The notes: generated from the sequence alone by a model not told the origin. 64,000 nt of DNA from an uncultured Candidatus Saccharibacteria bacterium (GCA_964565195.1 CAZMCQ010000003.1:24080-88079); one strand, 5' to 3'; counted from the first letter of the stretch, positions 13,904 through 45,255 are shown. Translations and numbers: made by a program.

Positions 13904-13974
13904 GGTCATCCTGAGGGCTTGCCCCGAAGGATCTACGCCGTATAGAGATTCTTCGCTTCGCTCAGAATGACAAT
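13904..13974. repeat. ~70-bp nested palindrome, family B copy 1 (GTCATCCTGAG...GAAGGATCT...AGAGATTCTTCG...CTCAGAATGAC), intergenic
   Basis: Outer and inner arms reverse-complementary; second copy at 30079..30147. Confidence 0.6.
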
Positions 13975-13980
13975 AATCGT

Positions 13981-14688
13981 ATGAAACCCGTAGCCATTTT
14001 CGATATCGACGGGACGATTTTTCGGTCGAGCCTGACGATCGAGCTTTTGCGCGAACTGATGCGGGCCAAACAAGTGCCGGCCTCGTCCGTCCGGACGATT
14101 CAAAGATACGAGCGGCAGTGGCTGGACCGGCGCGCGGATTACGGCAGCTACATCTGGGAAATTGTCCGCTGGTTCCAGCACGAGCTCAAAGGCCGCAAAC
14201 AGCGCGAGATCGTCGCAGCCAGCAAGCGGGTAATCAGTCAGCACAAATTGCGCACTTATCGTTATACCCTGGATTTATTGGCAAAAATTCGCCGTAAATA
14301 TTTCACGATCGGTATTTCCGGTTCGCTTCTTGAGGTCGTCAGGGAGTATAATAAATTCCTGAAGTTTGATAAATTTTACGGGTGGGAGTTTGGCACCGAT
14401 GCGCAAGGCCGATACACGGGCACGGTGTTATACGATCCGCCGCGGTATAAAAAAGAAGTGATCGCGCGCTATGTGAAGAACCACGGTTTGAGTTTTAGCC
14501 GCTCCGTCGGTGTCGGGGATACCGAGTCAGACATTGGCTTTCTGGAACTGGTCGAGAAGCCGATCGCTTTCAACCCGAACCGCAAGCTTGCGGAAAGAGC
14601 CCGGAAAGCCAACTGGCCGATTGTCATCGAGCGCAAGGATCTGATTGTAGAATTCCAGCCAAAGAAGGTTAAATTTTTAAAAGTATGA
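13981..14688 (+). CDS. HAD-superfamily hydrolase, subfamily IB (phosphoserine-phosphatase-like)
   Basis: DIDGT motif I, GVGDTESD motif IV. Confidence 0.65.
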   Translation: MKPVAIFDIDGTIFRSSLTIELLRELMRAKQVPASSVRTIQRYERQWLDRRADYGSYIWEIVRWFQHELKGRKQREIVAASKRVISQHKLRTYRYTLDLLAKIRRKYFTIGISGSLLEVVREYNKFLKFDKFYGWEFGTDAQGRYTGTVLYDPPRYKKEVIARYVKNHGLSFSRSVGVGDTESDIGFLELVEKPIAFNPNRKLAERARKANWPIVIERKDLIVEFQPKKVKFLKV

Positions 14689-14942
14689 GAGAACGATTCC
14701 GGGGTTCAGAGAGCGCCAGCCGGGAAGTGCCTCCGCCATCTTTTGAGGATCGGGTAAAGGCTTTTTGGGAAAATTACAAGCTGCGGCATATCGAAGAAGA
14801 AGGCGAATTTTTTATGTTGCCGGACGATTTGCGCAATTCACTTGCGGAACAGTTTGAAGAGAATGAGCTAGGGAAGGCCTGGTCTCATTTGCAGGGGTTG
14901 ATAGAGAATGAATTCAAAGGAGATTGGGATCTAAGAAGATGA
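14685..14942 (+). CDS. Hypothetical small acidic protein (85 aa)
   Basis: ATGA overlap with upstream HAD gene; no recognisable domain. Confidence 0.4.
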   Translation: MRERFRGSESASREVPPPSFEDRVKAFWENYKLRHIEEEGEFFMLPDDLRNSLAEQFEENELGKAWSHLQGLIENEFKGDWDLRR

Positions 14943-14946
14943 CCAT

Positions 14947-15022
14947 GTCCTCGTAGCTTAATGGATAAAGCGTCCGCCTCCGGAGCGGGAGACTGCGCGT
15001 TCGACTCGCGCCGAGGACACCA
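14947..15022 (+). tRNA. tRNA-Arg (CCG)
   Basis: GTCCTCGTAGCTTAATGGATAAAGCG...CTCCGGA...GTTCGACTCGCGCCGAGGACACCA; acceptor GTCCTCG/CGAGGAC, anticodon CCG. Confidence 0.85.
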
Positions 15023-15047
15023 AAGATGAAATTTCATAAAAAGTTAA

Positions 15048-15452
15048 ATGTCTAAGAAGCGCGTTTTGGTTTTCGGCACGTTTGATATTTTGCATCCCGG
15101 GCATATTGATTTTTTGCGCCAGGCCAAGCGTTATGGCGATTTTTTGATTGTCTCTCTGGCTCGCGAGAAAAATGTCAAGCGCGTCAAAGGGCAAAAACCA
15201 TTTCATTCTGAAACTGACAGAAAAAAACTCCTTGAGTCTCTGAAATTCGTCGACAAAGTGGTGATGGGGTCTAAAGATAACTATTTGGGGCATATCAAAT
15301 CCCTCAAGCCGGATGTGATTGTTTTGGGCTACGACCAGAAAGCCTACACCAAAGATTTGAAAGCGAAACTGGCCGGATTGGGATTGAGTCCGAGGATAGT
15401 TCGCGCGCAGTCTTATAAATCTAAAATATATCGATCGAGGAATTATCGATGA
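15048..15452 (+). CDS. Cytidylyltransferase-like nucleotidyltransferase, probable FMN adenylyltransferase (RibL-like)
   Basis: HxGH motif FDILHPGH; sits directly upstream of riboflavin kinase. Confidence 0.5.
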   Translation: MSKKRVLVFGTFDILHPGHIDFLRQAKRYGDFLIVSLAREKNVKRVKGQKPFHSETDRKKLLESLKFVDKVVMGSKDNYLGHIKSLKPDVIVLGYDQKAYTKDLKAKLAGLGLSPRIVRAQSYKSKIYRSRNYR

Positions 15453-15799
15453 TAGTTGCGAAAGGCCTGGTGGAGAAGAGTTTGGGTCGGGGCAGAAAGC
15501 TCGGGTTCCCGACGGCGAATATTGCACTCGGGGATGCCGTCGTTGAGGACGGAATTTACATTGGCTTTGCGAATAAAATGCCTGCTTTGATTTTTGTCGG
15601 CGCGGCAGAGACCTTTGGCGAGAGAGAGCGCCGGATCGAAGCGCACCTTTTGGATTTTGACGGGGACTTATACGGACAGGAAATTGAGGTAGAGTTAAAG
15701 CAAAAAATCAGAGAGAGTAGAAAGTTTGAGACTCAAGAAGAATTAGTAGCCCAGATGAAAAAGGACGAACAAGTCGCCCGAAAATATTTTTCAACCTGA
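15449..15799 (+). CDS. Riboflavin kinase (stand-alone RibF C-terminal-type domain)
   Basis: GRGRKLGFPTAN motif. Confidence 0.7.
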   Translation: MIVAKGLVEKSLGRGRKLGFPTANIALGDAVVEDGIYIGFANKMPALIFVGAAETFGERERRIEAHLLDFDGDLYGQEIEVELKQKIRESRKFETQEELVAQMKKDEQVARKYFST

Positions 15800-16384
15800 A
15801 TGTTTACTGGAATTATCAAGACAGTAGCCAAAGTTAAAAAAGCTGAGTTTACTGGAGGCTCGCTTTTTTTAACTGTTGAAAAACCGAAACCCTGGAAAAT
15901 AAAGCCCGGAGATTCCATAGCTACTGATGGCGCCTGCCTAACAGTAAAGAAAGTTGGCAGCGGTGATTTTACTGTGGAATTGATGCCGGAGACCCTAAGC
16001 AAAACTGTTTTTGGAAAAAAATCGCCACACAGAGTAAACCTCGAGCAATCTCTGAAATTAACTGATTTACTTGACGGGCATTTGGTCATGGGTCACGTGG
16101 ATACAGTCGGCAAAATTAGTCAGGTGGAGAGGCGCGGCGCCTCAAAAGTTTACACAATGCAATTTCCAAGACAATTCAGCAAACTGATTGTTTCTAAAGG
16201 GGCAATTGCAGTGGATGGGATAAGCTTGACTATTGTTGATGCGGGCAAGGGCTGGTTTACAGTTTCACTCGTGGATCATACAATAAAGAACACCACCCTC
16301 GGCGAGAAGAGCCCGGGGGAGATGGTAAATATTGAATTTGATATTTTGGCTAAATATTTAAATCGAATATGGCGCAAACAGTAA
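15800..16384 (+). CDS. ribE: Riboflavin synthase
   Basis: MFTGII N-terminus and internal duplicated lumazine-binding halves. Confidence 0.8.
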   Translation: MFTGIIKTVAKVKKAEFTGGSLFLTVEKPKPWKIKPGDSIATDGACLTVKKVGSGDFTVELMPETLSKTVFGKKSPHRVNLEQSLKLTDLLDGHLVMGHVDTVGKISQVERRGASKVYTMQFPRQFSKLIVSKGAIAVDGISLTIVDAGKGWFTVSLVDHTIKNTTLGEKSPGEMVNIEFDILAKYLNRIWRKQ

Positions 16385-16833
16385 TTAAAGGTAATTTTGA
16401 GAGATTTGACGCATCAGAGTTTAAAGTGGGGCTGGTGGCAGCGCAGTTTAATAAAGATATAACCGAAGGGTTGCTGGAAAGTGCGATAGGAATTCTTGAT
16501 CAATATGCCGTGCCAAAATCAAGCATTGCAATTTATAGAGTCGCGGGAAGTATTGAGATACCGGTTATTTTGCAGAGTTTGGCAAAAACAAAACAATATG
16601 ATTGCCTTTTGGCTATTGGCGCGGTAATTAGGGGCCAAACGCCCCATTTCGATTACGTGGCAAAGATCGTTTCCGAAGGTGTTTTGCGTGTTATGCTGGA
16701 TAATAGTATCCCGGTTGGATTTGGTGTATTAACTTGTGATAATCATGAGCAGGCCAGAGCGCGGATTCATGTCGGTGGCGAAGCTGCCGAAGCCGCTCTG
16801 CAAAGCGCTAAACTCATTGATGAAAGAGGATGA
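16369..16833 (+). CDS. ribH: 6,7-dimethyl-8-ribityllumazine synthase
   Basis: KVGLVAAQFN...ITEGLL... lumazine synthase fold signature. Confidence 0.8.
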   Translation: MAQTVIKGNFERFDASEFKVGLVAAQFNKDITEGLLESAIGILDQYAVPKSSIAIYRVAGSIEIPVILQSLAKTKQYDCLLAIGAVIRGQTPHFDYVAKIVSEGVLRVMLDNSIPVGFGVLTCDNHEQARARIHVGGEAAEAALQSAKLIDERG

Positions 16834-16874
16834 GCGCGCGGCGTGCAAATATTTTAAGCAGATAAAAAAATAAA

Positions 16875-17717: not shown

Positions 17718-17734
17718 CCATTAAGAACATTCAC

Positions 17735-21656: not shown

Positions 21657-22730
21657 ATGAGGATTAAATACGAATTATATTGGGAGGATATTGGTGAAAG
21701 AGTAATTTACGCAGAATTGGACGATTATGCTTGGAAACTACCCGAAAAAGTATTTAGATATAGAAAAAAGAATTCTCTATATATTTATCATCATGGAAAA
21801 ATGGCCGCATTTTATTCCAAGGATGATTCCCGGATAGAGGCAGCGATTGGAAGAAAATTTTTTAGTAAATCGATCAATGCGGCAAAAGTCGGTAAGCTCC
21901 AGGTAAGGAGTTTTAATAAAGTTAGAAACTATCAAAAAAAGATAAAACATGAAGAGATTATCAAACTTTTCGATAAAAATTTGAAACAAATGATATTTAA
22001 AACCCTCAATCTTTATCGTGAGGCCTTAAGCGTCCACTATTTAACCCAACCCCAATTTTTTGAAGGATTTAATGCTAGGGATTCAGAACGTTATTCTCAA
22101 ATTCTAAAAAAGCTTGCAGGAAATAGATTCACGTATACGAGAATTGCCTGGACATCTGCTTTTCAGCTAGCCAAATTTTTGCTAAGAGAGTATAGCAAAA
22201 GAATGAAGATAGGTCTTGAACAAGCTGAAAGCCTTTTATATAGAGAGCTTGCACAAAATAAAATTACGAAGAAACAACTAATAAAACGAGCTAAAGCATT
22301 TGTTTTAATTTCCAAAAATCATAGATTTAAACTTTATACGGGCAAGACAGTCCAAAAATATATTGATAAATATGAAAATTATCGCAATATTAGCTCGGTG
22401 AAGGGTATTATAGGCAACAAGAGAGGCAGAGTAAGGGGGAAAGCCTTTGTGGTTAGTAATGAAAATTTAGATCTTAACAAATTACCTAGGGGGATGAAAA
22501 AGGGTATGATTTTGATTGTTCAAAACGCGTGGCCCGAATTTGCTAAATATTACAAACTTGCCTCCGCAATTATTACAAACGAGGGTGGAATTACCTCACA
22601 CGGAGTGGTTGTTTCTCGAGAGTTCGGAATTCCCTGCATCGTTGGCACTAAAATTGCCACCAAAGTCTTCAAGGACGGGGATCTGGTCGAGGTGGATGCG
22701 AACAGGGGGATTGTCAAAAAAATAAACTAG
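21657..22730 (+). CDS. Protein with Lys-rich uncharacterised N-domain and C-terminal PEP-utilising-enzyme mobile (swivel His) domain, paralog P1
   Basis: C-terminus GGITSHGVVVSREFGIPCIVG...DGDLVEVDANRG matches PEP-utilizers phospho-His domain; strongly AT-rich. Confidence 0.6.
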   Translation: MRIKYELYWEDIGERVIYAELDDYAWKLPEKVFRYRKKNSLYIYHHGKMAAFYSKDDSRIEAAIGRKFFSKSINAAKVGKLQVRSFNKVRNYQKKIKHEEIIKLFDKNLKQMIFKTLNLYREALSVHYLTQPQFFEGFNARDSERYSQILKKLAGNRFTYTRIAWTSAFQLAKFLLREYSKRMKIGLEQAESLLYRELAQNKITKKQLIKRAKAFVLISKNHRFKLYTGKTVQKYIDKYENYRNISSVKGIIGNKRGRVRGKAFVVSNENLDLNKLPRGMKKGMILIVQNAWPEFAKYYKLASAIITNEGGITSHGVVVSREFGIPCIVGTKIATKVFKDGDLVEVDANRGIVKKIN

Positions 22731-24867: not shown

Positions 24868-26316
24868 ATGCCAAAAAATAAGCCTGAAAAAGACCTTTGG
24901 ATGGTGGCAGCGGAAATACCTCAAGACACAGTTTTTATGATGAGTGGGGCTCTTAAATTTATGATTCAGTCGTGGCCCACAATTGGTTTAGGCGGCAAAG
25001 TCTCCAAGTATTTCAGTCTGTTTGAAGGTGATTTTTGCAGGATGTATTATCTGCGTACCGAATTCGACGCCCAAGCCGCATTTTTGGCCGACAAGATGAT
25101 TAGTGATCCAGACTGGGCGCTGGGGTTTATCAAAAAAGTGGAAAACTGGTCTGCCAACTTCTTCAAAGAATCAAAACGATTCAGGAAACTTAACTTTTCT
25201 CAACTAGATAACCAGCAGATGATACGAGAGTATCAGAAACCCCTCAAATATCATGTCCTCTCCCACGGCAATGGGTCATCTGTTTCTTGGCATGCGGATG
25301 CAGACAAACAGAAGGTGACCAAAGCAATGCTCAAGACCCTTCAGTGTACCCCCGAGCAATTTAGCACCCTTTCAACGCCGTACAGAGGGAGCTTGGTAAG
25401 GGATGAGGAAAAGGACATCTTGAGACTAGCGATAATAAAGGATAAACAAAAGTTGATTGCACATGCCAAAAAGTATGAGTGGTTAAACTACCAATACAAA
25501 GGACCAGCCTACGATTTTTCTTACTTTGACGAGAGATTTAAGGCATTACTGAAAGGTAAAAATGATTTTGCTCCCGATAAACTTCTTGAAAAAATATTGC
25601 AGGCAGAAAAAGCTTTGATTCCAAAACAGCAAAAACTTATCACGAGCCTGAAATTTAGCCGGCATCAGGTTAAACTAATCAGGCTGGCCCAGGCGCTGGT
25701 TTTTATAAAAGATTATCGTAAGGATGCGCTTTATCATGGTATGTATAGCTATGAGCCGTTTTTCCGAGAAGTAGGCCGACGCTTGGGTTTGAGTCTGGAC
25801 CAAGTAAGAGCGTTTAACTATTGGGAGGTAGGTCCGGCATTGTTGAAAGGTGCATTTGATCCTAATGAACTTAATCAAAGATTGAAATTCTGTGTTGCGT
25901 GGGTTGATAAGAAAAATTACATTGTGTACACGGGGGAAAAAGCCAGAGAAATTTTGAGCAAGATTAGTTTCGAGAAATTAAAGACAAGAGGTATCGAAGA
26001 ACTAATCGGAATGTGCGCCTGTCCGGGGGTAGTTAAAGGGATTGTGAAGATAGTTAATATTCCAGAAGATATGGAAAAGATGGAAACAGGCAATGTCCTT
26101 GTTGCACACAACACTAATCCCAATCTCGTTCCAGCCATGAAAATGGCAGCCGCGATAATTTCGGAAGCGGGGGGATTGACCTGTCACTCGGCCATCGTAG
26201 CCCGTGAATTTCAGATTCCATGTGTCGTGGGTGTACCTGGTGCAGACAAGATTTTGAGAGATGGGGATTTGGTAAAAGTTGATGCGACCAAAGGGATTAT
26301 TAAAAAACTAAAGTGA
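24868..26316 (+). CDS. Uncharacterised ~380-aa N-domain + C-terminal PEP-utilising swivel-His domain, paralog P2
   Basis: C-terminus GGLTCHSAIVAREFQIPCVVG...DGDLVKVDATKG. Confidence 0.6.
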   Translation: MPKNKPEKDLWMVAAEIPQDTVFMMSGALKFMIQSWPTIGLGGKVSKYFSLFEGDFCRMYYLRTEFDAQAAFLADKMISDPDWALGFIKKVENWSANFFKESKRFRKLNFSQLDNQQMIREYQKPLKYHVLSHGNGSSVSWHADADKQKVTKAMLKTLQCTPEQFSTLSTPYRGSLVRDEEKDILRLAIIKDKQKLIAHAKKYEWLNYQYKGPAYDFSYFDERFKALLKGKNDFAPDKLLEKILQAEKALIPKQQKLITSLKFSRHQVKLIRLAQALVFIKDYRKDALYHGMYSYEPFFREVGRRLGLSLDQVRAFNYWEVGPALLKGAFDPNELNQRLKFCVAWVDKKNYIVYTGEKAREILSKISFEKLKTRGIEELIGMCACPGVVKGIVKIVNIPEDMEKMETGNVLVAHNTNPNLVPAMKMAAAIISEAGGLTCHSAIVAREFQIPCVVGVPGADKILRDGDLVKVDATKGIIKKLK

Positions 26317-27800
26317 AACCTAAATATCTTCACGACAATGATCCTTGGATGCTCGCGGAAGATATCCCGGATATCGATTTTCAGTTTTCTCAAATTTGGC
26401 TCTCTTCTTTTGTCAACGATTTAGAAAAAACAGTTGGGCGGAATTACAAGAAAATTCTCTGTGTTTATAAAGGTCTAAACCTGAAATTTTATTATGGAGA
26501 GAAAGATTCTGACAACTTTGCCAAACACGTCCTCGGGCTGATTTTGAACAATCCGGATTTCGGTGTAAAAATAAATAAACAAATTCGAGTTTATTCAGAT
26601 CGGCTCAAAGGAAATTCCAGAATTATTACTCAGGACTTTTTGCGAAGTCTGTCAAATCAAGATTTAGCTAGCTTTTATCATGAACTAGATGCGCTTCATA
26701 CTGAACTCTATACTTGGGGTTGGCTACCCAATGCCGTCGACATGTTCCATGGAAACTTTACAAATCATCTGAAACGCCTTCTCCGGGCGAAGATTACAGA
26801 AGATCTGGTTAACGAAACGCTGGTAGCGCTATCCACGCATCCCGAAAAAAGCATTATTCAGCAAGAGCACCAGTCCTTTTTGGGTCTGGTCGTCATGAAG
26901 CAATCGAGAGCCCCCAAAGAAGCGTTCAAAGAAGCATTCAAAGCCCACTTGGATAAATATTTTTATCTCAAACACCTTTGGATTGGCAAAGATGGAGTCT
27001 ACGACGAACAGTATTATTTGGATGAAGTCAAAAAGTTTAAGACTTCGGCGAGGGAGCTTTTGGTAAAAGAAAACCAGGCTTTCCGGCAGACTTTGAGCAA
27101 GAGGATGAAACTATTATCAAAATTAAAATTCGTCCAAAAAGAAAAACAAATTTTGGATGTCTATGCAGAATTCGCTATTACCAAAATGTACCGGCGAGAT
27201 GCCCAAATTTTTTGGGCATACAAAATGGATTTTGTGTTTAGTGAACTATCGCGAAGACTGAAAATTCCTTTTGTGCAAACTCGTTTCATGTTTCCGCATG
27301 AAGTAATTTCTGCCCTGAAGGCGGGCTGGCTTGCACCTAACTTGAAAAAAGAATTGAAAGAAAGGGTTAAATACTGCGTTTATTATGCAGTGAAGGACCG
27401 GGATTATTTATTTATAACAAAAGCGGCAAAGGAATTGGAGGCTCAAATCAAACAAAATCTGGACGAGAATGTAAATGAATTAGTTGGGCAAACGGCTTGC
27501 CTGGGGAAGGCAAAGGGCGTGGCCAAAATAGTGAACTCACCCTTTGACATGCGAAAAATGAACAAAGGGGATATTCTCGTAAGTATCGCTACCAACCCAG
27601 ATATTGTGCCAGCCATGAAAAAAGCTGCGGCGATTGTGACAGAACAGGGCGGCATCACAAGCCACGCGGCCATTGTCTCACGAGAGCTGGGAATTCCTTG
27701 TGTCATCGGTACGAAAATCGCCACCAAAGTTTTTAAAGACGGTGATTTGGTCGAGGTGGATGCGAATAAAGGAACAGTGAGGAAAATTTCTAATTTCTAA
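26313..27800 (+). CDS. Uncharacterised ~395-aa N-domain + C-terminal PEP-utilising swivel-His domain, paralog P3
   Basis: N-terminus parallels P2 (DPWMLAEDIPD); C-terminus GGITSHAAIVSRELGIPCVIGTKIATKVFKDGDLVEVDAN nearly identical to P1. Confidence 0.6.
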   Translation: MKPKYLHDNDPWMLAEDIPDIDFQFSQIWLSSFVNDLEKTVGRNYKKILCVYKGLNLKFYYGEKDSDNFAKHVLGLILNNPDFGVKINKQIRVYSDRLKGNSRIITQDFLRSLSNQDLASFYHELDALHTELYTWGWLPNAVDMFHGNFTNHLKRLLRAKITEDLVNETLVALSTHPEKSIIQQEHQSFLGLVVMKQSRAPKEAFKEAFKAHLDKYFYLKHLWIGKDGVYDEQYYLDEVKKFKTSARELLVKENQAFRQTLSKRMKLLSKLKFVQKEKQILDVYAEFAITKMYRRDAQIFWAYKMDFVFSELSRRLKIPFVQTRFMFPHEVISALKAGWLAPNLKKELKERVKYCVYYAVKDRDYLFITKAAKELEAQIKQNLDENVNELVGQTACLGKAKGVAKIVNSPFDMRKMNKGDILVSIATNPDIVPAMKKAAAIVTEQGGITSHAAIVSRELGIPCVIGTKIATKVFKDGDLVEVDANKGTVRKISNF

Positions 27801-29469: not shown

Positions 29470-32445
29470 ATGTCAACGAAAGCCAAGCTTAAGATTGAAA
29501 CCAAATCCCCGGCCTCGACAAAGCGAGGCGAGGTGAGCAAGCTTCTCGAGGGGCTGAATGAGGCGCAAAGGCAGGCCGCCACGCATGGCGAGGGGCCGCT
29601 TTTGATTGTGGCCGGGGCAGGGACTGGCAAAACCACGGTTATCACGAGGCGCGTGGCGTATTTTATTGAGCAGGGGACAAAGCCCGAAGAAATTCTGGCG
29701 CTCGCGTTCGGCGAGCGGGCCGCCGCGGAAATGGAAGAGCGCGTGGATGAGCTTCTGCCGCTTGGAGTAGTAAATATACAAGTCTCTACATTTCACGCGT
29801 TCTGCGAACAAGTTTTGCATGAATACGGCATTGCCATCGGCCTGCCGGATTTTAAAATTCTCGACGAGGTCGGGCAGTGGCTCCTCATCAGAAACAATCT
29901 CGAGAAATTCGACCTTCAGTATTACCGCCCCTTGGGCAACCCGACCAAATTCATCAAGGCGCTCGTTAAACATTTTGCGCGGGCCAAGGATGAGCTCGTG
30001 ACGCCGGATGAGTATTTGGATTATGCGGAGAAGCTGGAGTTGGAGAATGACCAGGCAGAAAGCGGAATGAAGCACCCTGTCATCCTGAGCGCGAGCGAAG
30101 GATCTCACCACTCGGACAGAGATTCTTCGGCTGCGCCTCAGAATGACGAGGTTTCCAGGGTTGAGGAGGTCGCGAATGCCTACCATGTTTATCAGAAACT
30201 TTTAGTTGAGAATAGCGCCTTGGATTTTGCGGACTTGATTTCCTATACAATTGAACTTTTCAAAAAACGTCCGAAAATTTTGGAACATTACAGAAACCGC
30301 TTCGAGTATATTCTCGTTGATGAGTTTCAGGATACCAACTACGCGCAGTATGAGCTTTTGAAACTGCTGGCCGCGCCTCGCAATAATATTACCGTGGTCG
30401 GCGACGATGACCAGAGCATTTTCAAATTCCGCGGCGCGTCTATTTCCAACATCCTGCATTTTCAGAGGGATTACCCGAAAGCCAAATTCATCTCTTTGAC
30501 TGACAATTACCGCTCCAAACAGAATATTTTGGACCTGGCCCATAGCTTTATCAAACAAAATGACCCGGATCGGCTCGAGGTAAAACTGAAACTTTCCAAG
30601 CGGCTGAAAAGCAGCCGCGGGGGCGACGGCAAAATAGAGGCGATCACGGCTGACAATTATGTTTTGGAGGCCGAGGCAGTGGTGCGGAAGATTACTGAAC
30701 TAATGTCGCTCTCACCTCAATCCTGGAACGACTTTGCTATCCTCGCGCGCTCGCATGAGCTTTTGGAGCCGTTTATCGCGGAGCTTGAGAAAAACCGAAT
30801 TCCCTATATCTATTTTGCCAACCGCGGCCTTTACCACAAGCCGCTCATCTTGGATTTGCTTTCGTATTTCAAAGTTTTGCTCGACTATCACGACAGCCAG
30901 GCATTCTACCGCGTTTTGAAACTGCCAGTCTTTGCAATCTCCGACAGCGCCATCGTGGAGCTCTCGCACCATGCGCACCGGAAGGCCGCCTCGCTCTATG
31001 AGGCAGTCCGGCAAAAAGCCATTGCCAAAGTATTAACAACCATAGAAAAACACGCGCATCTGGCGCGGGAAAAAAGCGCGCTGGAGGTCTATACTACGGT
31101 GTTTAATGACCTCGAATTTACCAAGGCGATTGATCTCGAGTCGCAGGAGGGCTGGCAGAACGCGCGGTACAATGATGCCTTCCTGCGGCGCCTGCAGCAG
31201 TTTATGGTCGAGAGTCGCGACCGCTCGCTTGCCGCGTTTATGAATGAGATCGCCTTTGAACAGGAGGCCGGCAGCGAAGGGGAGCTGGCGTTTGATCCCG
31301 AGGCCGGCCCGGAGGCGGTTAAACTGCTAACCGTGCATGGAGCAAAGGGTTTGGAGTTTTCCGATGTCTTTGTCGTGGGTCTCGTGGACAAACGTTTCCC
31401 GAGCATTGAGCGCAAGGAGCAGATCGAACTCCCCGTGGAGCTGGTCAAAGATATTCTGCCGACCGGGGATATTCATCTTGAAGAGGAACGGCGGCTTTTT
31501 TATGTGGCGATGACGCGGGCCAAAGACGGGTTGTATTTGACGCGGGCGCTGGACTATGGCGGCAAGCAGACCAAGCGGCCTTCGCGCTTTTTGATCGAGC
31601 TCGGCCTGGCCGAAGTCGAAAAAGCGCAACCCACGGGCCAGGTGGCCTTGAAAATCCCGAAGCGCGGCAGGCTGCAGCTGCCGATTCCGAAAAATTTTTC
31701 CTTTAGTCAAATTTCCGCCTTCATTGCCTGCCCGCTTCGCTATAAATACCGCTACATTCTGCGTCTGCCGGAACCCGGCAACGCCAGTTTGTCTTTCGGG
31801 CAGAGCGTGCATAAAACCCTCGAGAAGTTTCTAAAGCACGTTCAGGAAAGCGTTGGCCGCCAGGATCTGTTTGGCAAAACTGCGGCGCGCCCGGAGCCGC
31901 CCGGCTTTGCCCTCCTGCAGAAATATTATGAGGAATCGTGGATTGACGACTGGTATCCTTCAAAATCAATCCGGGAGGAGCACCATCGGCTTGGCCTGGC
32001 CGCGCTAAAAATTTTTTACGAAGAATTCAAAGCCGCCGCGCCCCACGTCAAATATCTGGAAAAGAAATTTCGGCTGAAACTCCGGGACGTCTGGTTTGAC
32101 GGCAAGATCGATCGCGCTGACCAGACCGATGACGGCCTGATCATTATCGATTACAAAACCGGCGCCGCGCGCCAAATCTCGGATGTGGACCATGACCAGC
32201 TCCTCTCCTACCAATGGGCCGCGCAGGAATTCCTGAAAGAACGTGTTCAGAGCTTGCAATACTGGTATCTTCGCGATAAGCTGGAGAAGAAGGAATTCCT
32301 GGGTACCGACGAGCAGATTGCGAAGCTGCAGGACAAATTTTACCGGAATATTCAGGAAATTATCGCGTGCATAAAAAATAACAATTTTCTCGAAGCGGAC
32401 CTGCGGCGGGCGCATGAGTGCGCCTACCGCAAATTAGAATTATGA
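29470..32445 (+). CDS. UvrD/PcrA-like SF1 helicase fused to a C-terminal PD-(D/E)xK (RecB/Cas4-like) nuclease domain; AddA-like but compact (991 aa)
   Basis: Walker A AGAGTGKT, helicase motifs VDEFQD, TVHGAKGLEF; C-terminal ...CPLRYKYRY... DGKIDRADQTDDGLIIIDYKTG nuclease core. Confidence 0.75.
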   Translation: MSTKAKLKIETKSPASTKRGEVSKLLEGLNEAQRQAATHGEGPLLIVAGAGTGKTTVITRRVAYFIEQGTKPEEILALAFGERAAAEMEERVDELLPLGVVNIQVSTFHAFCEQVLHEYGIAIGLPDFKILDEVGQWLLIRNNLEKFDLQYYRPLGNPTKFIKALVKHFARAKDELVTPDEYLDYAEKLELENDQAESGMKHPVILSASEGSHHSDRDSSAAPQNDEVSRVEEVANAYHVYQKLLVENSALDFADLISYTIELFKKRPKILEHYRNRFEYILVDEFQDTNYAQYELLKLLAAPRNNITVVGDDDQSIFKFRGASISNILHFQRDYPKAKFISLTDNYRSKQNILDLAHSFIKQNDPDRLEVKLKLSKRLKSSRGGDGKIEAITADNYVLEAEAVVRKITELMSLSPQSWNDFAILARSHELLEPFIAELEKNRIPYIYFANRGLYHKPLILDLLSYFKVLLDYHDSQAFYRVLKLPVFAISDSAIVELSHHAHRKAASLYEAVRQKAIAKVLTTIEKHAHLAREKSALEVYTTVFNDLEFTKAIDLESQEGWQNARYNDAFLRRLQQFMVESRDRSLAAFMNEIAFEQEAGSEGELAFDPEAGPEAVKLLTVHGAKGLEFSDVFVVGLVDKRFPSIERKEQIELPVELVKDILPTGDIHLEEERRLFYVAMTRAKDGLYLTRALDYGGKQTKRPSRFLIELGLAEVEKAQPTGQVALKIPKRGRLQLPIPKNFSFSQISAFIACPLRYKYRYILRLPEPGNASLSFGQSVHKTLEKFLKHVQESVGRQDLFGKTAARPEPPGFALLQKYYEESWIDDWYPSKSIREEHHRLGLAALKIFYEEFKAAAPHVKYLEKKFRLKLRDVWFDGKIDRADQTDDGLIIIDYKTGAARQISDVDHDQLLSYQWAAQEFLKERVQSLQYWYLRDKLEKKEFLGTDEQIAKLQDKFYRNIQEIIACIKNNNFLEADLRRAHECAYRKLEL
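30079..30147. repeat. Family B nested palindrome copy 2, in-frame inside the helicase gene
   Basis: gtcatcctgagcgcgagcgaaggatctc...agagattcttcggctgcgcctcagaatgac; encodes VILSASEGSHHSDRDSSAAPQNDE loop. Confidence 0.6.
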
Positions 32446-39454: not shown

Positions 39455-39492
39455 AGGGCAGGTTATAGGAGATAGGTTATAGGTTTTAGGAA
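39455..39492. repeat. Family C-related direct repeat (ggttatagg x2) after gyrB
   Basis: aggttataggagataggttataggttttagg. Confidence 0.3.
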
Positions 39493-40073: not shown

Positions 40074-40118
40074 GAAACCTCCTATAAAGTGAGTATTTGG
40101 TACAATTATTTCAAAAAT

Positions 40119-40148
40119 TTGACAGACCGTCAAGGGGTGCGGTATAAT
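40119..40148 (+). promoter_or_regulatory. Sigma70 promoter (TTGACA-18-TATAAT) for secE-nusG-rplKA
   Basis: Consensus hexamers read directly. Confidence 0.55.
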
Positions 40149-40162
40149 GCATTCAGTTAAAT

Positions 40163-40262
40163 TGAAAGGCCCGGAAAGGCCTTTTAAAATAGGCCGTAAT
40201 CGGCCGTATCCCCGAGCAGTCGGGGATACATAAGATAAGAATGGATTCCCGCCTTCGCGGGA
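40163..40262 (+). other. Structured leader with three consecutive hairpins upstream of secE
   Basis: aaaggcc-cggaa-ggccttt; gtatccccg-agcagt-cggggatac; attcccgc-cttc-gcgggaat followed by GAATGAC. Confidence 0.3.
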
Positions 40263-40274
40263 ATGACAGGCGTT

Positions 40275-40463
40275 ATGAATAAACTATTGCAATTTTTGAA
40301 AGACGTGCGCGTGGAGCTGGCCAAAGTGGTCTGGCCGAGCCGGCGCGAGGCCATCCGCGCCACGGGCATTGTGATTTTGTTTTCGCTCGCAGTCGCGGCC
40401 TTCCTGGGACTCATTGATTTTGGTCTGGCCAAGCTCATAGGTTTAATCGTTGATCTAAAATGA
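40275..40463 (+). CDS. secE: Preprotein translocase subunit SecE
   Basis: Small single-TM protein with VRVELAKVVWPSRRE motif, directly upstream of nusG. Confidence 0.7.
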   Translation: MNKLLQFLKDVRVELAKVVWPSRREAIRATGIVILFSLAVAAFLGLIDFGLAKLIGLIVDLK

Positions 40464-40548
40464 AGACCTCTCTTAAACCCCTCTTTAATTCTCCCCCCTG
40501 CCTTGCCGGCCGGCAGGTCGACAGGGGAGAAATAAAGGAAGATAACTA

Positions 40549-41094: not shown

Positions 41095-41193
41095 TACAAT
41101 TAATTTCTTTAATATCGCGCAGGCCGAAAGGCCAAGCAAGTTTCAATAAATTTCGCGATATTTGTGGAGACTTGTGGAAATATATAGAAATTT

Positions 41194-41619
41194 ATGGCGA
41201 AGAAGGTAAAGACAACAATTAAGCTGCAGATTCCGGCGGGCAAGGCCAATCCGGCGCCGCCGATTGGCACGGCGCTTGGGCCGCACGGTATCAATATCAT
41301 GGATTTCTGCAAGGTCTTCAACGAGAGAACCCGCGACAAGGGCGATTCCGTGATTCCGGTCGTGATGACGATCTACGAGGACCGCAGTTTTCAATTTATC
41401 CTCAAAACTCCGCCAGTCTCGGACATGATCAAGAAAGCGCTCAAAGTGGAGAAGGGCGCGAGCAACCCCCTCAAGAATAAGATCGGAAAATTAAGCCGCG
41501 CCCAGCTGCGCCAGATCGCGGAAGCGAAAATGGCCGATCTCAATGCCAATAGTATCGCCGCCGCGGAAAAGATTGTTGCCGGAACGGCAAGAAGCATGGG
41601 AGTCGAGGTAGAAAATTAA
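41194..41619 (+). CDS. rplK: 50S ribosomal protein L11
   Basis: MAKKV...[26 protein letters not shown]. Confidence 0.9.
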
Positions 41620-41709
41620 AATGTAAATATCAAAAATCAAAATTGCAGATTAAAATTTTAAATTTTTCACTATCATTTTCAATTTTGATTTTTAATTTTT
41701 GATTTCGCA
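41620..41709. repeat. AT-rich palindromic intergenic element, family D copy 3 (rplK-rplA spacer)
   Basis: Diverged relative of the atp-operon copies (aatgtaaatatcaaaaatcaaaattgcag...attttgatttttaatttttgattt). Confidence 0.45.
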
Positions 41710-42384: not shown

Positions 42385-42476
42385 GAAGTTAGCTTATAGC
42401 TTATAGGGAATAGCTCTCTGCAAAGTGAGCTATTTTTGCTATACTTCTATTAGCTAATACCTATAAGCTATTTCCC
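42385..42476. repeat. TATAAGCT-motif structured element, family C copy 2 (after rplA)
   Basis: agcttatagcttataggg ... cctataagct outer arms with inner aatagctc/gagctatt hairpin. Confidence 0.45.
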
Positions 42477-43061
42477 ATGATTTTGTCCGACAAAGACATC
42501 AAAACAAAACTGGACGAGGGGGCGATCAAAATTGACCCGATGCCCGATTTGGCCGTTGCCCTCGGGTCGATTTCTGTAGACCTTCGCCTGGGCAATCAGT
42601 TCCTGGTTTATATCCGTACCGAGCAACCGTATATTGATGTCAACAATTCCGAGACTTTTGAAAATTTAACTAACCTTATTTCCAAACGAGACGATGAACA
42701 CTTTACAATTCACCCTGGCGAGTTTGTACTCGCCACGACTTTGGAAACTGTGGAAATCCCCAATGATCTGGCGGGGCGCCTCGAGGGGCGCTCTTCACTT
42801 GGGCGGCTGGGGATTGTGATTCATTCCACAGCTGGAAAATTTGACCCGGGCTGGAAAGGCCGGCTGGTGCTTGAGATTAGCAACATCGGCCAAGTGCCAG
42901 TCAAACTCTATCCCGGGATGCGCGTCTGCCAGCTTTTGTTCGAGCAGCTTTCTTCGCCGACGGAACAGCCGTACACTGAACGCAAAAGTTCCAAATACAA
43001 ATTCCAGTCTTCACCTTTGAGCAGCAAAATCACCGCCGAAGCCAATGAAAGTAAAGATTAA
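42477..43061 (+). CDS. dcd: dCTP deaminase
   Basis: MILSDKDIK N-terminus, dUTPase-fold trimer motifs. Confidence 0.8.
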   Translation: MILSDKDIKTKLDEGAIKIDPMPDLAVALGSISVDLRLGNQFLVYIRTEQPYIDVNNSETFENLTNLISKRDDEHFTIHPGEFVLATTLETVEIPNDLAGRLEGRSSLGRLGIVIHSTAGKFDPGWKGRLVLEISNIGQVPVKLYPGMRVCQLLFEQLSSPTEQPYTERKSSKYKFQSSPLSSKITAEANESKD

Positions 43062-43470
43062 GCGCATTGACGAGTCTCTGCCTCTGCCGGAACACCAAAC
43101 GGGTGGATCAGTCGCCTTTGATTTTTATTCGCGTATAGACGCGAGCATAAAGCCGCACCAATTCCGGATATTGCCTTCTAATCTCATTATTGCTGTGCCA
43201 GAGGGCTATTTTTTACTGATTGCAGCTCGTTCCAGCACTCATAAAAGGGGATTGCTGCCTGCCAATGGGATAGGCGTGATTGACCAGGATTATCATGGCG
43301 AAAAAGATGAAATAGGGATTTTGGTGTACAACGTTACGGACAAGCGGGTTGACATTAAAAGAGGAGAGCGCATTGCGCAGGGATTGATTATTCCGGTGGA
43401 ACGGGCGGAATGGGTGGAAGGGGAGAAGTTAAGAGAGGATTCAAGAGGGGGATTTGGGTCTACGGGGTAA
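43045..43470 (+). CDS. dut: dUTP diphosphatase
   Basis: dUTPase motifs GSVAFDFYS, RSSTHKRG, IDQDYHGE. Confidence 0.8.
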   Translation: MKVKIKRIDESLPLPEHQTGGSVAFDFYSRIDASIKPHQFRILPSNLIIAVPEGYFLLIAARSSTHKRGLLPANGIGVIDQDYHGEKDEIGILVYNVTDKRVDIKRGERIAQGLIIPVERAEWVEGEKLREDSRGGFGSTG

Positions 43471-43508
43471 ATAAGTAATTTACCTCACGAAAGGGAGAGG
43501 TTACAGAT

Positions 43509-44087
43509 ATGACAAAAGGCAAATTCATCGTTCTTTATGGAATAAATAATCTTGGCAAGTCTACGCAGGCGAGATTATTAGTTGAGAAATTGCTGGCCCA
43601 AGGCAGAAAAGCGAAGTATATAAAATACCCGATCTATGACCTCGAACCATCCGGACCGCTTCTGAATAATTATTTGCGCGAAGGGAATACATATAAACTC
43701 ACGCCAAAGGAAGCGCAGATAATTTACGCGTTCAACCGCGCGCAATACGAACCGGAATTAAAAAATCAACTGGAGCGGGGGATAGACATTTTGGCGGAAG
43801 ATTATTGGGGTACTGGCGTGGCCTGGGGCATGGGCGCGGGCGAGGATAAAAAATTTCTGCTGGAGCTGAATTCAGGATTTTTGCGCGAAGATCTGGCGTT
43901 TTTGTTTGTTGGCGAAAGATTTGCAACAGGGCTTGAGAAGGATCATAAGCACGAAACGGATGAGGAATTGATAAAGCGAGTTGACGAGGCGCACCGCGAT
44001 CTTGCCAAAAAATTTGGATGGAAAATTGTAAATGCCAATGAGAGTGTTGAAAAGGTAAATGAGGCAATATTTAGACTTATTGGATAA
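43509..44087 (+). CDS. tmk: Thymidylate kinase-like P-loop nucleotide kinase
   Basis: P-loop [11 protein letters not shown] typical of dTMP kinase; context dcd-dut-tmk-thyA. Confidence 0.6.
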
Positions 44088-44871
44088 AGTGATGAGAGAG
44101 GGGCTGGAACGGCCGGACCGCACGGGCACTGGCACACGCGGGATTTTTGGTTATCAGATGAGGTTTGAGCTATCCCGCGGTTTTCCAGTGCTCACGACCA
44201 AGAAAATTCATTTGAAGTCCATTATCTATGAGCTTTTGTGGTTTTTGAAAGGCGACACAAACATTAAATGGTTAAACGAGCATGGCGTGACCATCTGGGA
44301 TGAATGGGCCGATGAGAACGACGATTTGGGGCCGATCTATGGCAAGCAGTGGACTGCGTGGGAGGGGAAAGACGGAGTGAAAATAAATCAAATCGCACAG
44401 GCCGTTGAAATGATAAAAAATAATCCTTATTCAAGACGTAACATCGTGAGCGGTTGGAATGTGGCAGACTTACAAAACTTAGTTAAGGGTAAAAAGACTG
44501 CGCCACCACCGTGCCATACGATGTTTCAGTTTTACGTCGCGGACGGGAAATTGTCGTGTCAATTATACCAACGCAGCGCCGATATTTTCCTGGGCGTGCC
44601 GTTTAACATCGCTTCTTATGCGCTTTTAACGATGATGATGGCACAGGTTTGCGACCTTGCGCCCGGCGAGTTTGTGCATACCCTGGGCGATACGCATATT
44701 TACAAAAATCATTTTGATCAGGTGAAACTGCAGCTGACGCGGCAGCCGCGGCCGTTGCCGACTATGAAAATCAACCCGGCAGTGAAAGACATTTTCGGAT
44801 TTAAATTTGAAGACTTTGAACTCGTCGGCTATGACCCGCATCCGGGCATCAAAGCCCCGATAGCGATATAA
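44059..44871 (+). CDS. thyA: Thymidylate synthase (ThyA type)
   Basis: MRQYLDLL N-terminus, catalytic PPCH motif ([13 protein letters not shown]), DRTGTGT. Confidence 0.85.
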
Positions 44872-44913
44872 AAATATAGCTGTCATTCCGGCCCTGAGCC
44901 GGAATCCAGATAG

Positions 44914-45201
44914 ATGAAAGAATATTATGTTTACATTTTAGCCAGCAGAAGAAATGGGACGTTGTATATCGGGGTAACGTCAGATTTAATAAAGAGAGTT
45001 TATGAACATAAGAATGATGTTGTTGAGGGGTTCACCAAGAAATACGGGGTTCATAAGCTTGTGCATTATGAACAGACCGAGAGCATCGAAGGCGCGATTG
45101 CAAGAGAAAAACAATTGAAGAACTGGCACAGAAAATGGAAACTGGAACTGATAGAGAACTCAAACCCCACATGGAAGGATTTATACGAAGAATTAATTTG
45201 A
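44914..45201 (+). CDS. GIY-YIG nuclease family protein (UPF0213/YhbQ-like, 95 aa)
   Basis: YYVYILASRRNGTLYIGVTSDLIKRVYEH GIY-YIG core; flanked by short hairpins containing GTCATTC / GAATGAC. Confidence 0.75.
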   Translation: MKEYYVYILASRRNGTLYIGVTSDLIKRVYEHKNDVVEGFTKKYGVHKLVHYEQTESIEGAIAREKQLKNWHRKWKLELIENSNPTWKDLYEELI

Positions 45202-45255
45202 CTGGATTCTGACTTTCGTCAGAATGACAAATGGGAGAGGGAGAGCACGACATTT

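Follow-up and report, generated by a model that had tools for sequence, protein, structure and literature searches.

An SsnA-type GIY-YIG nuclease module and dispersed hairpins of two classes in a genome segment of Candidatus Saccharibacteria

Described hairpin-nuclease systems and tagged palindromic repeats

The Ssn proteins are site-specific nucleases that bind a short hairpin formed by extrusion from single-stranded DNA and carrying the 5' tag (C/T)GTCAT, with the cut placed a few nucleotides upstream of the hairpin; in four Ssn homologs the site-specific cleavage was restricted to single-stranded DNA (PMC11893778). Chenal et al. (2025, Nat Commun) described the NTS-ssnA-NTS arrangement, the published SRM motif being HGTCWYN(0-2)YYVSBRHN(0-5)WNVSBRGN(0-2)RNCYNB; in N. 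meningitidis, natural transformation is modulated by the NTS/SsnA pair, and the mobility of the module was proposed in that work as a hypothesis only (PMC11893778). The superfamily of CGTC/TGTC-tagged REPs, including Neisseria dRS3 and Rickettsia RPE-4/RPE-6, was characterized by Di Nocera et al. (2013) as having AT-start stems and occurring mainly as head-to-head dimers, some of them within ORFs and in frame, notably in replication and repair genes such as recB, and no dedicated enzyme was found for them by these authors (PMC3733652).

The DNA considered here is a stretch of 64,000 nucleotides from an uncultured Candidatus Saccharibacteria bacterium (hereafter, the window), in which a real hairpin-nuclease system was found that is largely already explained by the published Ssn/SRM work. 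GIY-YIG nucleases are not known to have strand-transfer activity, nor Ssn proteins to mobilise DNA.

The ssnA module between thyA and folA

The gene, its flanks and the adjacent remnant are located as follows.

44882 to 44909, plus strand: upstream SRM hairpin GTCATTCCGGCCCTGAGCCGGAATCCAG, the left insertion boundary (-10 kcal/mol, z = -5.3)
44914 to 45201, plus strand: ssnA homolog, a 95-aa single-domain GIY-YIG nuclease gene (PF01541)
45202 to 45228, minus strand: downstream SRM hairpin, GTCATTCTGACGAAAGTCAGAATCCAG on the minus strand, the right insertion boundary (-6.5 kcal/mol, z = -4.0)
45229 to 45245, plus strand: remnant (loop and right arm, AAATGGGAGAGGGAGAG) of a different hairpin, recognized by comparison with the related locus L225

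The only GIY-YIG gene of the window encodes a protein in which PF01541 covers residues 4-77 of 95 (E = 2.9e-15), with no other Pfam or NCBIfam family at cut-off. More than 8000 homologs were found, with 68-78% identity among the best 120 listed, and the family comprises 15,069 cluster representatives (50% identity) at E <= 1e-3. In the tblastn comparison with chromosomes filed in PLSDB (homology criterion E < 1e-10), the ssnA region of N. gonorrhoeae was 58.9% identical at 95% coverage (E = 2e-29). The GIY-YIG catalytic residues Y7, Y18, R28, E65 and N84 are invariant in a 28-sequence alignment including the window protein, which holds all of the residues invariant across the 28 aligned homologs. 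Judged by sequence, the protein belongs to the Ssn family (cd10448, SsnA-like), and the cleavage of single-stranded DNA is predicted for it.

The initial annotation had described related half-sites on both sides of this gene; the flanking by related hairpins is confirmed, but they are not mere half-sites, being inverted repeats of each other in the NTS architecture. Together, gene and flanks make up an SRM–ssnA–SRM module typical of the Ssn system. It shares with the published systems the single-domain protein of about 95 aa devoid of an extra DNA-binding domain (about 94 aa in the Ssn family), the inverted (C/T)GTCAT-tagged hairpins around the gene together with dispersed hairpin copies, and hairpin variants differing by nuclease clade, while it differs in the CPR host and in the few copies per 64 kb instead of hundreds in clusters.

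The module is 347 bp long, has the ends GTCAT…ATGAC, and lies between thyA and folA, which overlap or are 44 nt apart in five related loci; since the corresponding sites of these relatives are empty, the module is an insertion. At its right junction, the module adjoins the loop of a hairpin found intact in L225: the remnant at 45229-45245 is identical in 17/17 nt to L225, which reads CCCTCTCCC followed directly by AAATGGGAGAGGGAGAG just upstream of folA. In the relative, the intact hairpin flanks a gene for DUF559 endonuclease at this site, so that the remnant, a part of that hairpin, marks the breakpoint of the module. No target-site duplication was visible at any junction, either of the ssnA module or of the two palindrome copies treated below. 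The ssnA gene in a Doudnabacteria MAG occupies a locus different from that of the window gene.

The association of gene and hairpins was followed in 78 loci where close homologs lie, taken from CPR, Proteobacteria, Planctomycetes, Chloroflexi, Cyanobacteria and other groups. Within <=150 nt, units of GTC, hairpin and C facing inward were found on both sides in 56/78 and on at least one side in 74/78 of the loci, against 27/274 control segments with such units. The published SRM motif was present on both sides in only 17/78 loci versus the 56/78 obtained by the structural definition, and, thus, this motif is narrow.

Type-A hairpins, their dimers and the in-frame copy in the helicase gene

The pattern GTCATYC-N5-24-GRATCY, whose chance level in 200 dinucleotide shuffles was 0.39 on average and 3 at maximum, picks out seven hairpin units in the window, each built as GTC-AT(Y)C…stem-loop…G(R)AT-C. 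Two of them are the inverted units around the GIY-YIG gene, one is solo, and four compose two palindromes of about 68 bp; all of the seven (7/7) have GTCAT with an AT-start stem, and a short 3' tail orients the unit. The repeat family announced by the initial annotation is, thus, real, with both copies placed within 1-3 nt of the positions given there. The units outside the module and the helicase gene holding the second palindrome are listed below.

13905 to 13971: palindrome copy 1, 67 nt, filling the 85-nt spacer between an NYN-domain gene and a HAD hydrolase gene
13905 to 13933, plus strand: type-A unit, left arm of copy 1, GTCATCCTGAGGGCTTGCCCCGAAGGATC (pattern match and fold)
13947 to 13971, minus strand: type-A unit, right arm of copy 1, GTCATTCTGAGCGAAGCGAAGAATC on the minus strand (pattern match)
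29470 to 32445, plus strand: gene of a UvrD-type helicase fused with a PD-(D/E)XK nuclease, 991 aa (Pfam domains)
30079 to 30147: palindrome copy 2, 69 nt (23 codons), within the helicase ORF, frame open
30079 to 30104, plus strand: type-A unit, left arm of copy 2 (pattern match, within the helicase ORF)
30121 to 30147, minus strand: type-A unit, right arm of copy 2 (pattern match)
40241 to 40268, minus strand: solo canonical SRM/NTS-type hairpin TGTCATTCCCGCGAAGGCGGGAATCCAT, intergenic, upstream of secE-nusG

The solo unit, absent from the initial annotation, is near-identical to Neisseria NTS, has a DNA hairpin energy of -8.9 kcal/mol (z = -3.7), and is the only literal match to the published SRM motif in the window; the two gene-flanking units and the four type-A units gave no literal match. 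The three canonical units have 8-bp stems, loops of 4-5 nt and a CCA tail. None of the repeats matched Rfam, only four tRNAs in the window reaching the gathering score, and a fuzzy search of the window revealed no further type-A copies.

The type-A units have the consensus GTCATYCTGAG…GAAGRATCTC, in which GTC is followed by a 5-bp lower stem (ATYCT/AGRAT), then by a tandem G·A step and a variable upper stem-loop of small size, often GCGAAGC, with 2-4 bp in its stem, and by a CTC tail. The left arm of copy 1 folds with the lower stem ATCCT/AGGAT and the upper stem GGGC/GCCC, and the core of its right arm is GCGAAGC, the commonest among the type-A units, the two arms together making a 67-nt head-to-head dimer. 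Position 6 (Y) is in Watson-Crick pairing with its partner R in 110/114 distinct units, and this internal pairing holds in 52/52 units of 26 strict dimers, although the same Y occurs in both arms of only 10/26 dimers and the arm cores are of unequal length in 21/26. The conserved entity is, therefore, the single type-A unit rather than the long palindrome. The elements of about 68 bp, a "nested palindrome" family in the initial annotation, are not single nested palindromes: they are head-to-head dimers of independent type-A hairpins. Mini-hairpins of the GCGAAGC type are stable. Folded alone with the standard DNA parameters, the type-A units have low stability (-1.9 to -4.6 kcal/mol, z about 0), so that the case for a single-unit hairpin is made by the covariation and by the stability of such mini-hairpins.

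The type-A family, of 25-35 nt per unit, extends with hundreds of units across many phyla and phage-like contigs, and some of its units are also in frame in phage large terminase, polyvalent proteins and Mu-like proteins. Among 194 units on other contigs, the preceding base was T for 170, C for 19 and A for 5 but G for none, and it is G before the window unit at 13905; a head-to-head partner within <=130 nt was present for 62/194 units (median spacer 19 nt), and both window copies are head-to-head. Compared with the CGTC-tagged REPs, the units of the window share the tag, the AT-start stem, the head-to-head dimers and the in-frame copies, but type-A fails the uninterrupted 8-9 bp stem with a 4-5 nt loop and CCA tail (PMC3733652). 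The interrupted stem, the tandem G·A step and the CTC tail, missed by the published motif, also distinguish type-A from the Ssn/SRM hairpins described, as do the in-frame genic copies, the NTS being reportedly rarely intragenic (2%) (PMC11893778).

In a metagenome scan for a type-A unit with GTLYIG codons 40-70 nt further on, 11 matches were obtained, and all of them (11/11) were full ssnA-like ORFs (HMM E = 1e-23 to 1e-42) with an inverted type-A unit downstream, noted by eye and not demanded by the pattern. Their 9 distinct proteins, with 51-61% identity to that of the window, share the signature KGW[LRK]R.[KR]K, and fall into a single cluster against the 78 canonical-flanked proteins. Accordingly to a simple neighbour-joining tree of protein sets chosen in different ways, the type-A-flanked ssnA genes appear as a sister clade to the canonical-hairpin clade, and the nuclease clade and hairpin class vary together. 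The link between the GIY-YIG protein and the repeats suspected by the initial annotation is, thus, borne out by the published Ssn/SRM system and by the 11/11 type-A loci, but not with the window gene as the type-A cognate: its clade is the canonical one, the cognate hairpin being of the GGAATCCAG type and not of the CTGAG…GAAGRATCTC type. No ssnA gene of the type-A clade was found within the 64-kb window, no ssnA homolog in 120 IMG/VR loci (1.1 Mb) holding the 194 type-A units, and no GIY-YIG gene in viral contigs by the scan for type-A pairs one gene apart.

Copy 2 keeps the helicase frame, as had been annotated, and is translated there as VILSASEGSHHSDRDSSAAPQND (residues 204-226). In the ortholog alignment, the site is bounded by the conserved AE(A/S)G motif and by R..EVANAYHVYQ; it is empty in many orthologs, which contradicts a segment shared by all of them, and both the length and the sequence of the loop are variable in all. 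In the AlphaFold model, the loop connects the helices 179-198 and 223-247, with pLDDT < 50 at residues 198-222. With its 69 nt (23 codons), the helicase copy forms an insert in a loop that is hypervariable and disordered. In the DNA alignment, another palindrome occupies this position in the closest ortholog (79% identical), and palindrome-derived peptides of other kinds were found at this loop in the orthologs, which upholds the earlier view of a genome permissive to in-frame palindromes. Most likely, the helicase copy is a neutral passenger, which would be tolerated and persist because it is 69 nt long, free of stops in the helicase frame, and placed in a disordered, length-variable surface loop. 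The Rickettsia palindromic elements (RPE) were reportedly described by Ogata et al. (2000), a work cited in PMC3733652, as selfish DNA in frame in protein-coding genes. The type-A copies resemble them as short palindromic repeats that keep the frame and end in surface-exposed segments of conserved proteins, and differ from the RPE-1 type, of about 100-150 bp and restricted to Rickettsia, in the unit size, the many phyla and the identified partner gene family.

Origin and spread of the hairpin copies

The window is best read as containing one complete Ssn module and dispersed copies of two hairpin classes, with the spread initiated by Ssn (probability about 0.7). Elsewhere, the type-A units flank the sister-clade ssnA genes with GTCAT outward, as in the canonical module, so that the dimers have the architecture of that module minus the gene; they may be small non-autonomous forms derived from the type-A module, or paired sites that the same process has seeded. 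Of the features of MITEs, the dimers show inverted ends and a gene-bearing counterpart with the same ends, no target-site duplication being visible and no transposase being involved. The spread would start with the nicking by Ssn at hairpins in single-stranded DNA, with copying or repair as the next step, and would not be the work of a classical transposase.

An explanation that is rather improbable, though compatible with the preferred one, is that the repeats are host-maintained sites and not selfish copies, serving either the control of Ssn cleavage, where the hairpins would mark single-stranded DNA in transformation, replication or repair as proposed for Neisseria, or as hairpins stabilising or terminating mRNA. 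The modulation of natural transformation by NTS/SsnA in N. meningitidis (PMC11893778), the strict conservation of the unit-level pairing, and the position of copy 1 in a short spacer between two co-directional genes speak for such a role. However, no terminator-like call was obtained for the palindromes on the coding strand, there is no Rfam match, and selection would hardly account for the copies in the helicase loop, phage terminase and polyvalent proteins; CPR bacteria with one ssnA gene and only few copies per 64 kb lack the massive clustering of Neisseria, and the same sites are occupied or empty in close relatives, which indicates a recent gain.

It is unlikely, to a still greater degree, that the palindromes of about 68 bp are ordinary REP or MITE elements unrelated to Ssn, spread by a RAYT/IS200-type or other transposase located elsewhere, with a coincidental or convergent GTCATYC end. 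The REP/BIME elements with RAYT also comprise a small gene between inverted hairpins found as singletons, dimers and clusters, and the recognition of a hairpin in single-stranded DNA; the head-to-head dimers and clusters are typical of them too (PMC3733652), and the lack of a type-A-clade ssnA in the window and in the 1.1 Mb of viral loci, as well as the failure of type-A units to match the published SRM motif, agrees with such an origin. However, RAYT (IS200/IS605-like) is an HUH/Y1 transposase with a covalent intermediate, whereas the nuclease here is a hydrolytic GIY-YIG enzyme, and type-A has the (T/C)GTC tag with an AT-start stem, not the GTAG of the RAYT-associated REPs (PMC3733652). The ssnA-like genes lay between inverted type-A units in 11/11 metagenome matches, the second unit not being imposed, and the hairpin class covaries with the nuclease clade. 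Finally, it is very improbable that the helicase has here an ancestral variable linker resembling the intergenic palindrome by chance, the variation of this loop in all orthologs notwithstanding, since two intact type-A units, complete in all conserved positions and in the internal pairing, make up the segment, which has the exact bounds GTCAT…ATGAC, matches copy 1 as well as hundreds of units found elsewhere, and is absent from the closest ortholog, where another palindrome stands.

To the Ssn/SRM system as published, the comparison with the relatives adds the evidence of empty sites and of cassette replacement for the mobility of the whole module.

Canonical hairpins and the SsnA nuclease

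The hairpin elements of the window belong to the Ssn/SRM system (SRM, Ssn-related motif hairpins) and to the superfamily of CGTC-tagged REPs, the identities of the hairpins and of the nuclease being given a probability of about 0.75. The elements concerned are as follows:

13905-13971, 67 nt: palindrome copy 1, most of the 85-nt spacer from an NYN-domain gene to a HAD-hydrolase gene
30079-30147, 69 nt: palindrome copy 2, inside a 991-aa ORF with UvrD helicase domains and a C-terminal PD-(D/E)XK nuclease
40241-40268, minus strand: solo canonical unit TGTCATTCCCGCGAAGGCGGGAATCCAT, upstream of secE-nusG
44914-45201: ssnA homologue between thyA and folA, 95 aa, a single GIY-YIG domain

The palindrome positions of the initial annotation were borne out, and the GIY-YIG ORF, where related half-sites had been noted, is indeed flanked by related hairpins, but these are complete: one hairpin of 27-28 nt stands on either side in inverted orientation (upstream GTCATTCCGGCCCTGAGCCGGAATCCAG; downstream, read as the reverse complement, GTCATTCTGACGAAAGTCAGAATCCAG; the canonical unit). 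The unit pattern GTCATYC, 5-24 nt, GRATCY gave 7 matches in the window, whereas 200 dinucleotide shuffles averaged 0.39 and never gave more than 3; the seventh match is the solo unit, overlooked previously. No further degenerate unit copies were found in the window, where an Rfam scan returned tRNAs only and the terminator and promoter scans gave no terminator-like call for either palindrome on the coding strand; copy 2 had no blastn match among the PLSDB plasmids, and a literature search on the repeat sequence itself yielded unrelated primers only.

The GIY-YIG protein corresponds to SsnA, a 94-aa single-domain protein that binds single-stranded DNA at a hairpin repeat and makes its cut immediately upstream of the repeat; in Neisseria this repeat (NTS) is CGTCATTCCCGCGMAVGCGGGAATCYRG, and across phyla the SRM typically bracket ssnA genes (Chenal et al. 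2025, PMC11893778). The window protein is 58.9% identical to the N. gonorrhoeae ssnA region over 95% of its length (E = 2e-29) and keeps all invariant family residues; the solo unit TGTCATTCCCGCGAAGGCGGGAATCCAT is nearly the NTS consensus, and no other stretch of the window matches the published degenerate SRM motif literally. More than 8000 close homologues were found, the best 120 at 68-78% identity, in phyla as distant as Zixibacteria, Actinobacteria and Pseudomonadota; the family comprises 15,069 cluster representatives at E <= 1e-3. A PDB sequence search with the window nuclease returned only a weak match, the UPF0213 GIY-YIG protein 1zg2 (E = 1.3e-4).

Genomic loci of 80 close homologues were fetched, and at nearly all of them inward-facing GTCAT-hairpin-ATCCAG units abut the start and stop codons; 78 loci had enough flank to be counted. 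With a structural definition of the unit (GTC, then a hairpin with 6 bp or more, then C), both sides were occupied at 56/78 loci and at least one side at 74/78, the control segments giving 27/274; with the published SRM motif the corresponding values were 17/78, 42/78 and 3/274. Compensatory stem differences occur between the loci (ATTCCCGCG, ATCCCCGCG, ATGCTGAAC, ATACCGGCG and others). For the canonical units of the window stable folds are predicted, with energies of -6.5 to -10 kcal/mol and z from -3.7 to -5.3. Thus, given the published Ssn system and these flanked loci, the question raised earlier of a link between the GIY-YIG protein and the repeats is answered positively for the canonical hairpin.

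Several features were recorded besides. PLSDB lists two N. gonorrhoeae chromosomes of 2.17 Mb among its plasmids (locus L234, NZ_CP119142.1:1881319-1882388); where their ssnA should start, an in-frame ATG is missing, and the nearest NTS units point their GTCAT end towards ssnA, opposite to the window and most other loci. Three small G+C-rich hairpins (GGCCCGGAAAGGCC…, GGCCGTAATCGGCC, ATCCCCGAGCAGTCGGGGAT) are stacked at 40160-40235, before the solo SRM upstream of secE. The window also contains a 96-nt AT-rich palindromic repeat (AATGTAAAAATGAAATATCAAAAAT…; 1346-1441, 2651-2746 and 41612-41707, two of the three copies being 94% identical), short direct and inverted repeats on the motifs CTATAAGCTATTTCC / GGAAATAGCTTATAG (6624-6688, 39460-39489, 42440-42487), and a 158-nt direct repeat in three copies of 61-72% identity (22566-22723, 26152-26309, 27630-27787), which is probably paralogous coding sequence.

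The type-A hairpin and its nuclease clade

Copies 1 and 2 are built from a second hairpin class, type A, with the arm GTC-ATYCT-GA-[short variable stem-loop]-GA-AGRAT-CTC. Its tag and its orientation are those of the canonical unit, and its lower stem likewise starts with AT; the stem is broken by a conserved tandem G·A step, and none of the four type-A units of the window matched the published SRM motif. The commonest core is GCGNAGC; d(GCGAAGC) is a very stable DNA mini-hairpin. A scan of IMG/VR found type A in at least 120 stretches, from which 194 units with full context were used: GTCAT is preceded by T in 170, C in 19, A in 5 and G in none, the tail is TC in 112, and 62 have a head-to-head partner within 130 nt (median spacer 19 nt). 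The atypical G before GTCAT in copy 1 is explained by an extra hairpin, TGACCGC-TT-GCGGTCA, which the NYN stop codon and the first GTCA of the copy form at 13893-13908. Tandem arrays of at least 5 type-A dimers with a period of about 87 nt, reminiscent of BIME clusters, were noticed in two loci (L196:8546-8970 and L206:9009-9345).

The copies had been described as nested palindromes of about 70 bp; the repeat family is real, but the single nested palindrome is not. The T or C at position 6 forms a Watson-Crick pair with an A or G opposite it in 110 of the 114 distinct units and within all 52 units of the 26 strict dimers, whereas the same base stands in both arms of only 10 of these dimers; the arm cores are of unequal length in 21 of the 26. 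Copies 1 and 2 both have ATCCT/AGGAT in the left arm and ATTCT/AGAAT in the right. Since the pairing is conserved inside the units and not between the arms, the palindrome is therefore two independent hairpin units set head to head; one long nested palindrome was ruled out, the arms differing in core length and at the covarying position and each being self-complementary. Taken singly, a type-A unit has a weak fold under the standard nearest-neighbour parameters for DNA, at -1.9 to -4.6 kcal/mol, no better than shuffles (z about 0), so that covariation, not fold energy, argues for the predicted single-unit hairpin.

The nuclease of type A was sought in several sets. Type-A flanks were found at 0/80 of the close-homologue ssnA loci, the ssnA HMM had no hits in 120 of the IMG/VR loci with type-A units (1.1 Mb), and among the 7 viral loci with type-A pairs spaced 285-315 nt, two of them dimer arrays, none held a GIY-YIG gene. 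A metagenome pattern, consisting of a type-A unit followed 40-70 nt on by codons for the family motif GTLYIG, gave 11 matches, all with complete ssnA-like ORFs (HMM E = 1e-23 to 1e-42), and directly behind the stop codon of each of the 11 lies another type-A unit in inverted orientation, one that formed no part of the search pattern; in some of these downstream units compensatory changes keep the lower stem, e.g., ACCCT/AGGGT. The 9 distinct proteins of these loci, 51-61% identical to the window SsnA, form one cluster in a neighbour-joining tree, outside which all 78 canonical-flanked proteins fall, and carry the signature KGW[LRK]R.[KR]K after the REKQxK motif, against K[KN]W.R.WK. The two-sided flanks at 11/11 loci, the single protein cluster and the signature argue, from sequence comparison, that type A is the hairpin of a sister Ssn clade, and the head-to-head type-A dimer has exactly the architecture of the sister-clade module minus its gene. 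The link suspected between GIY-YIG genes and the 68-bp family thus stands at the metagenome loci but not in the window, whose only GIY-YIG gene is of the canonical clade; an enzyme for its two type-A dimers could be encoded elsewhere in the genome or act by cross-recognition, or there could be none, the copies being relics.

Insertion at the thyA-folA junction and in protein loops

The junction of thyA and folA is occupied differently among the compared loci:

L229, L230 and L233: thyA and folA overlap by 4 nt
L227 and L228, fully syntenic: thyA and folA 44 nt apart
L225:200-660: gene of a 126-aa DUF559 (Vsr-like) endonuclease between thyA and folA, hairpin-bracketed
L224:2400-2860: 126-aa DUF559 gene upstream of folA only (fused), with an ammonium transporter gene upstream
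L226: canonical SRM, the contig beginning 11 nt before folA
Window: complete SRM–ssnA–SRM module between thyA and folA

In the close relatives L225 and L224 the hairpins bracketing DUF559 are CCTCTCC-GATTTC-GGAGAGG and CCCTCTCCC-AAAT-GGGAGAGGG. The 17 nt following the window module (AAATGGGAGAGGGAGAG, 45229-45245) are identical to the loop and right arm of the L225 hairpin; the ssnA module therefore replaced the DUF559 cassette, the breakpoints lying at the outer GTCAT…ATGAC ends and the right one in the hairpin loop. In another Doudnabacteria MAG, ssnA stands after a transketolase gene. No target-site duplications were visible at any examined junction.

DUF559 and the CCTCTCC…GGAGAGG-family hairpins may represent a second nuclease-hairpin pair analogous to Ssn/SRM, a lead rather than a result, the pairing being known from two related loci only (L225, L224); DUF559 relatives were not found in the viral contigs, nor was a literature link for the pair in the searchable literature. 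A second palindrome family, CTCCCC(C)-loop-(G)GGGGAG / CCCTCTCC-loop-GGAGAGGG, to which the hairpins around DUF559 belong, occurs in the window at 4908-4927, 13324-13344, 61584-61601, 62035-62052 and 62627-62647, and lies in frame in the helicase loop of L223, where the window has the type-A dimer.

Copy 2 is open over its 69 nt in the helicase frame (ORF 29470-32445), as was originally proposed, and is translated as VILSASEGSHHSDRDSSAAPQND, residues 204-226; copy 1 (67 nt) is open in just 1/6 frames. The ortholog alignment confirmed the insert as a 23-residue segment between the conserved AE(A/S)G and R..EVANAYHVYQ blocks, absent from many orthologs (e.g., P0124, P0125 and P0132). In the closest one (79% identical, L223) this position is taken by another palindrome, CCCCTACCCTCTCC-GATATC-GGAGAGGGGGAGGG, and others carry repeat-like peptides, PPLRVRGG, LRSAQG…, DPEINSGL and DPETSSGL (P0123, P0126, P0128, P0133, P0141, P0155, P0157); DPEINSGL and DPETSSGL look like translations of another GTCAT-type hairpin. 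The helicase loop is a recurrent landing site, in agreement with the earlier picture of a genome permissive to in-frame palindromes. According to an AlphaFold model that drew on 49 orthologs (mean pLDDT 82.6), the insert lies in a disordered segment linking the helices 179-198 and 223-247, and pLDDT drops below 50 over residues 198-222.

Elsewhere, 35 of 208 distinct type-A units from viral loci sit well within ORFs that run from stop to stop for 200 aa or more, many of which are possibly spurious in GC-rich DNA; by Pfam, 5 of the 10 largest type-A-bearing ORFs are real proteins:

L112:1153-2646: large terminase, the unit lying inside the N-terminal domain
L169:3325-10308 and L173:3-2810: two polyvalent proteins
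L144:2714-5179: Mu transposase-like protein
L171:3379-5490: Mu-F/LPD3 protein

These copies agree with the CGTC/TGTC-tagged REPs, including Neisseria dRS3 and Rickettsia RPE-4/6, in which stems start with AT, dimers are arranged head to head and some copies sit within genes for replication and repair, recB among them, no dedicated enzyme being known at that time (Di Nocera et al. 2013, PMC3733652). For many of the Ssn cluster representatives P0361-P0510 the annotated N-terminus is extended by 30-60 residues, apparently because gene calling ran on through upstream hairpins that contain no stop codon; the N-terminus of P0421 is a translated type-A dimer, and a crude screen of N- and C-terminal extensions in 150 family representatives gave 1 type-A-like and 7 canonical-like repeat-derived peptides.

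Possible mobilisation and significance

The module and the gene-less dimers have been gained and lost at precise sites, and the hairpin class follows the nuclease clade. In single-stranded DNA, Ssn is known to bind its hairpin and to introduce a nick on the upstream side of the tag (PMC11893778). In the likeliest mechanism it would, during replication, repair or uptake, nick hairpins extruded in single-stranded DNA, whereupon copying or repair would carry the hairpin-bounded segment to a new place; the type-A dimers would be the minimal non-autonomous form and the helicase copy a neutral passenger in a permissive loop. That Ssn is the mobilising agent appears doubtful; to our knowledge no GIY-YIG enzyme joins DNA, and movement of the repeats has never been observed.

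Less probable still, and on balance unlikely, is the broader reading that hairpin-bounded mini-nuclease cassettes form a general class of transposase-free mobile elements in small genomes of this kind, driven by single-strand nicking. In such a class, SRM–ssnA–SRM could move as a discrete GTCAT…ATGAC-bounded piece, could land at or replace other hairpin-bounded cassettes, here DUF559, with the break in a hairpin loop, and could leave behind gene-less hairpin dimers able to colonise protein loops, while DUF559 with the CCCTCTCC/GGAGAGGG hairpins could be a second, undescribed nuclease-hairpin pair.

None of these findings overturns the current understanding of the Ssn/hairpin system, and the new points are modest: a hairpin class, with its nuclease subclade, that the SRM motif of the literature does not cover, unit-level covariation marking the dimer arms as independent hairpins, and the occurrence in coding sequence and in candidate-phyla-radiation bacteria, to which the host range is extended. 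The empty sites in relatives, the cassette replaced at one spot and the position of ssnA at different loci within one lineage are the first site-level evidence known to us of the gene-plus-hairpins unit as a discrete insertion. The repeated tolerance of hairpin units in frame, in a repair helicase, a phage terminase and polyvalent proteins, bears on gene annotation and on the interpretation of variable loops. As type A and its subclade were missed by the SRM motif, nuclease-site pairs, and with them potential single-strand cutting specificities, are more numerous than reported.
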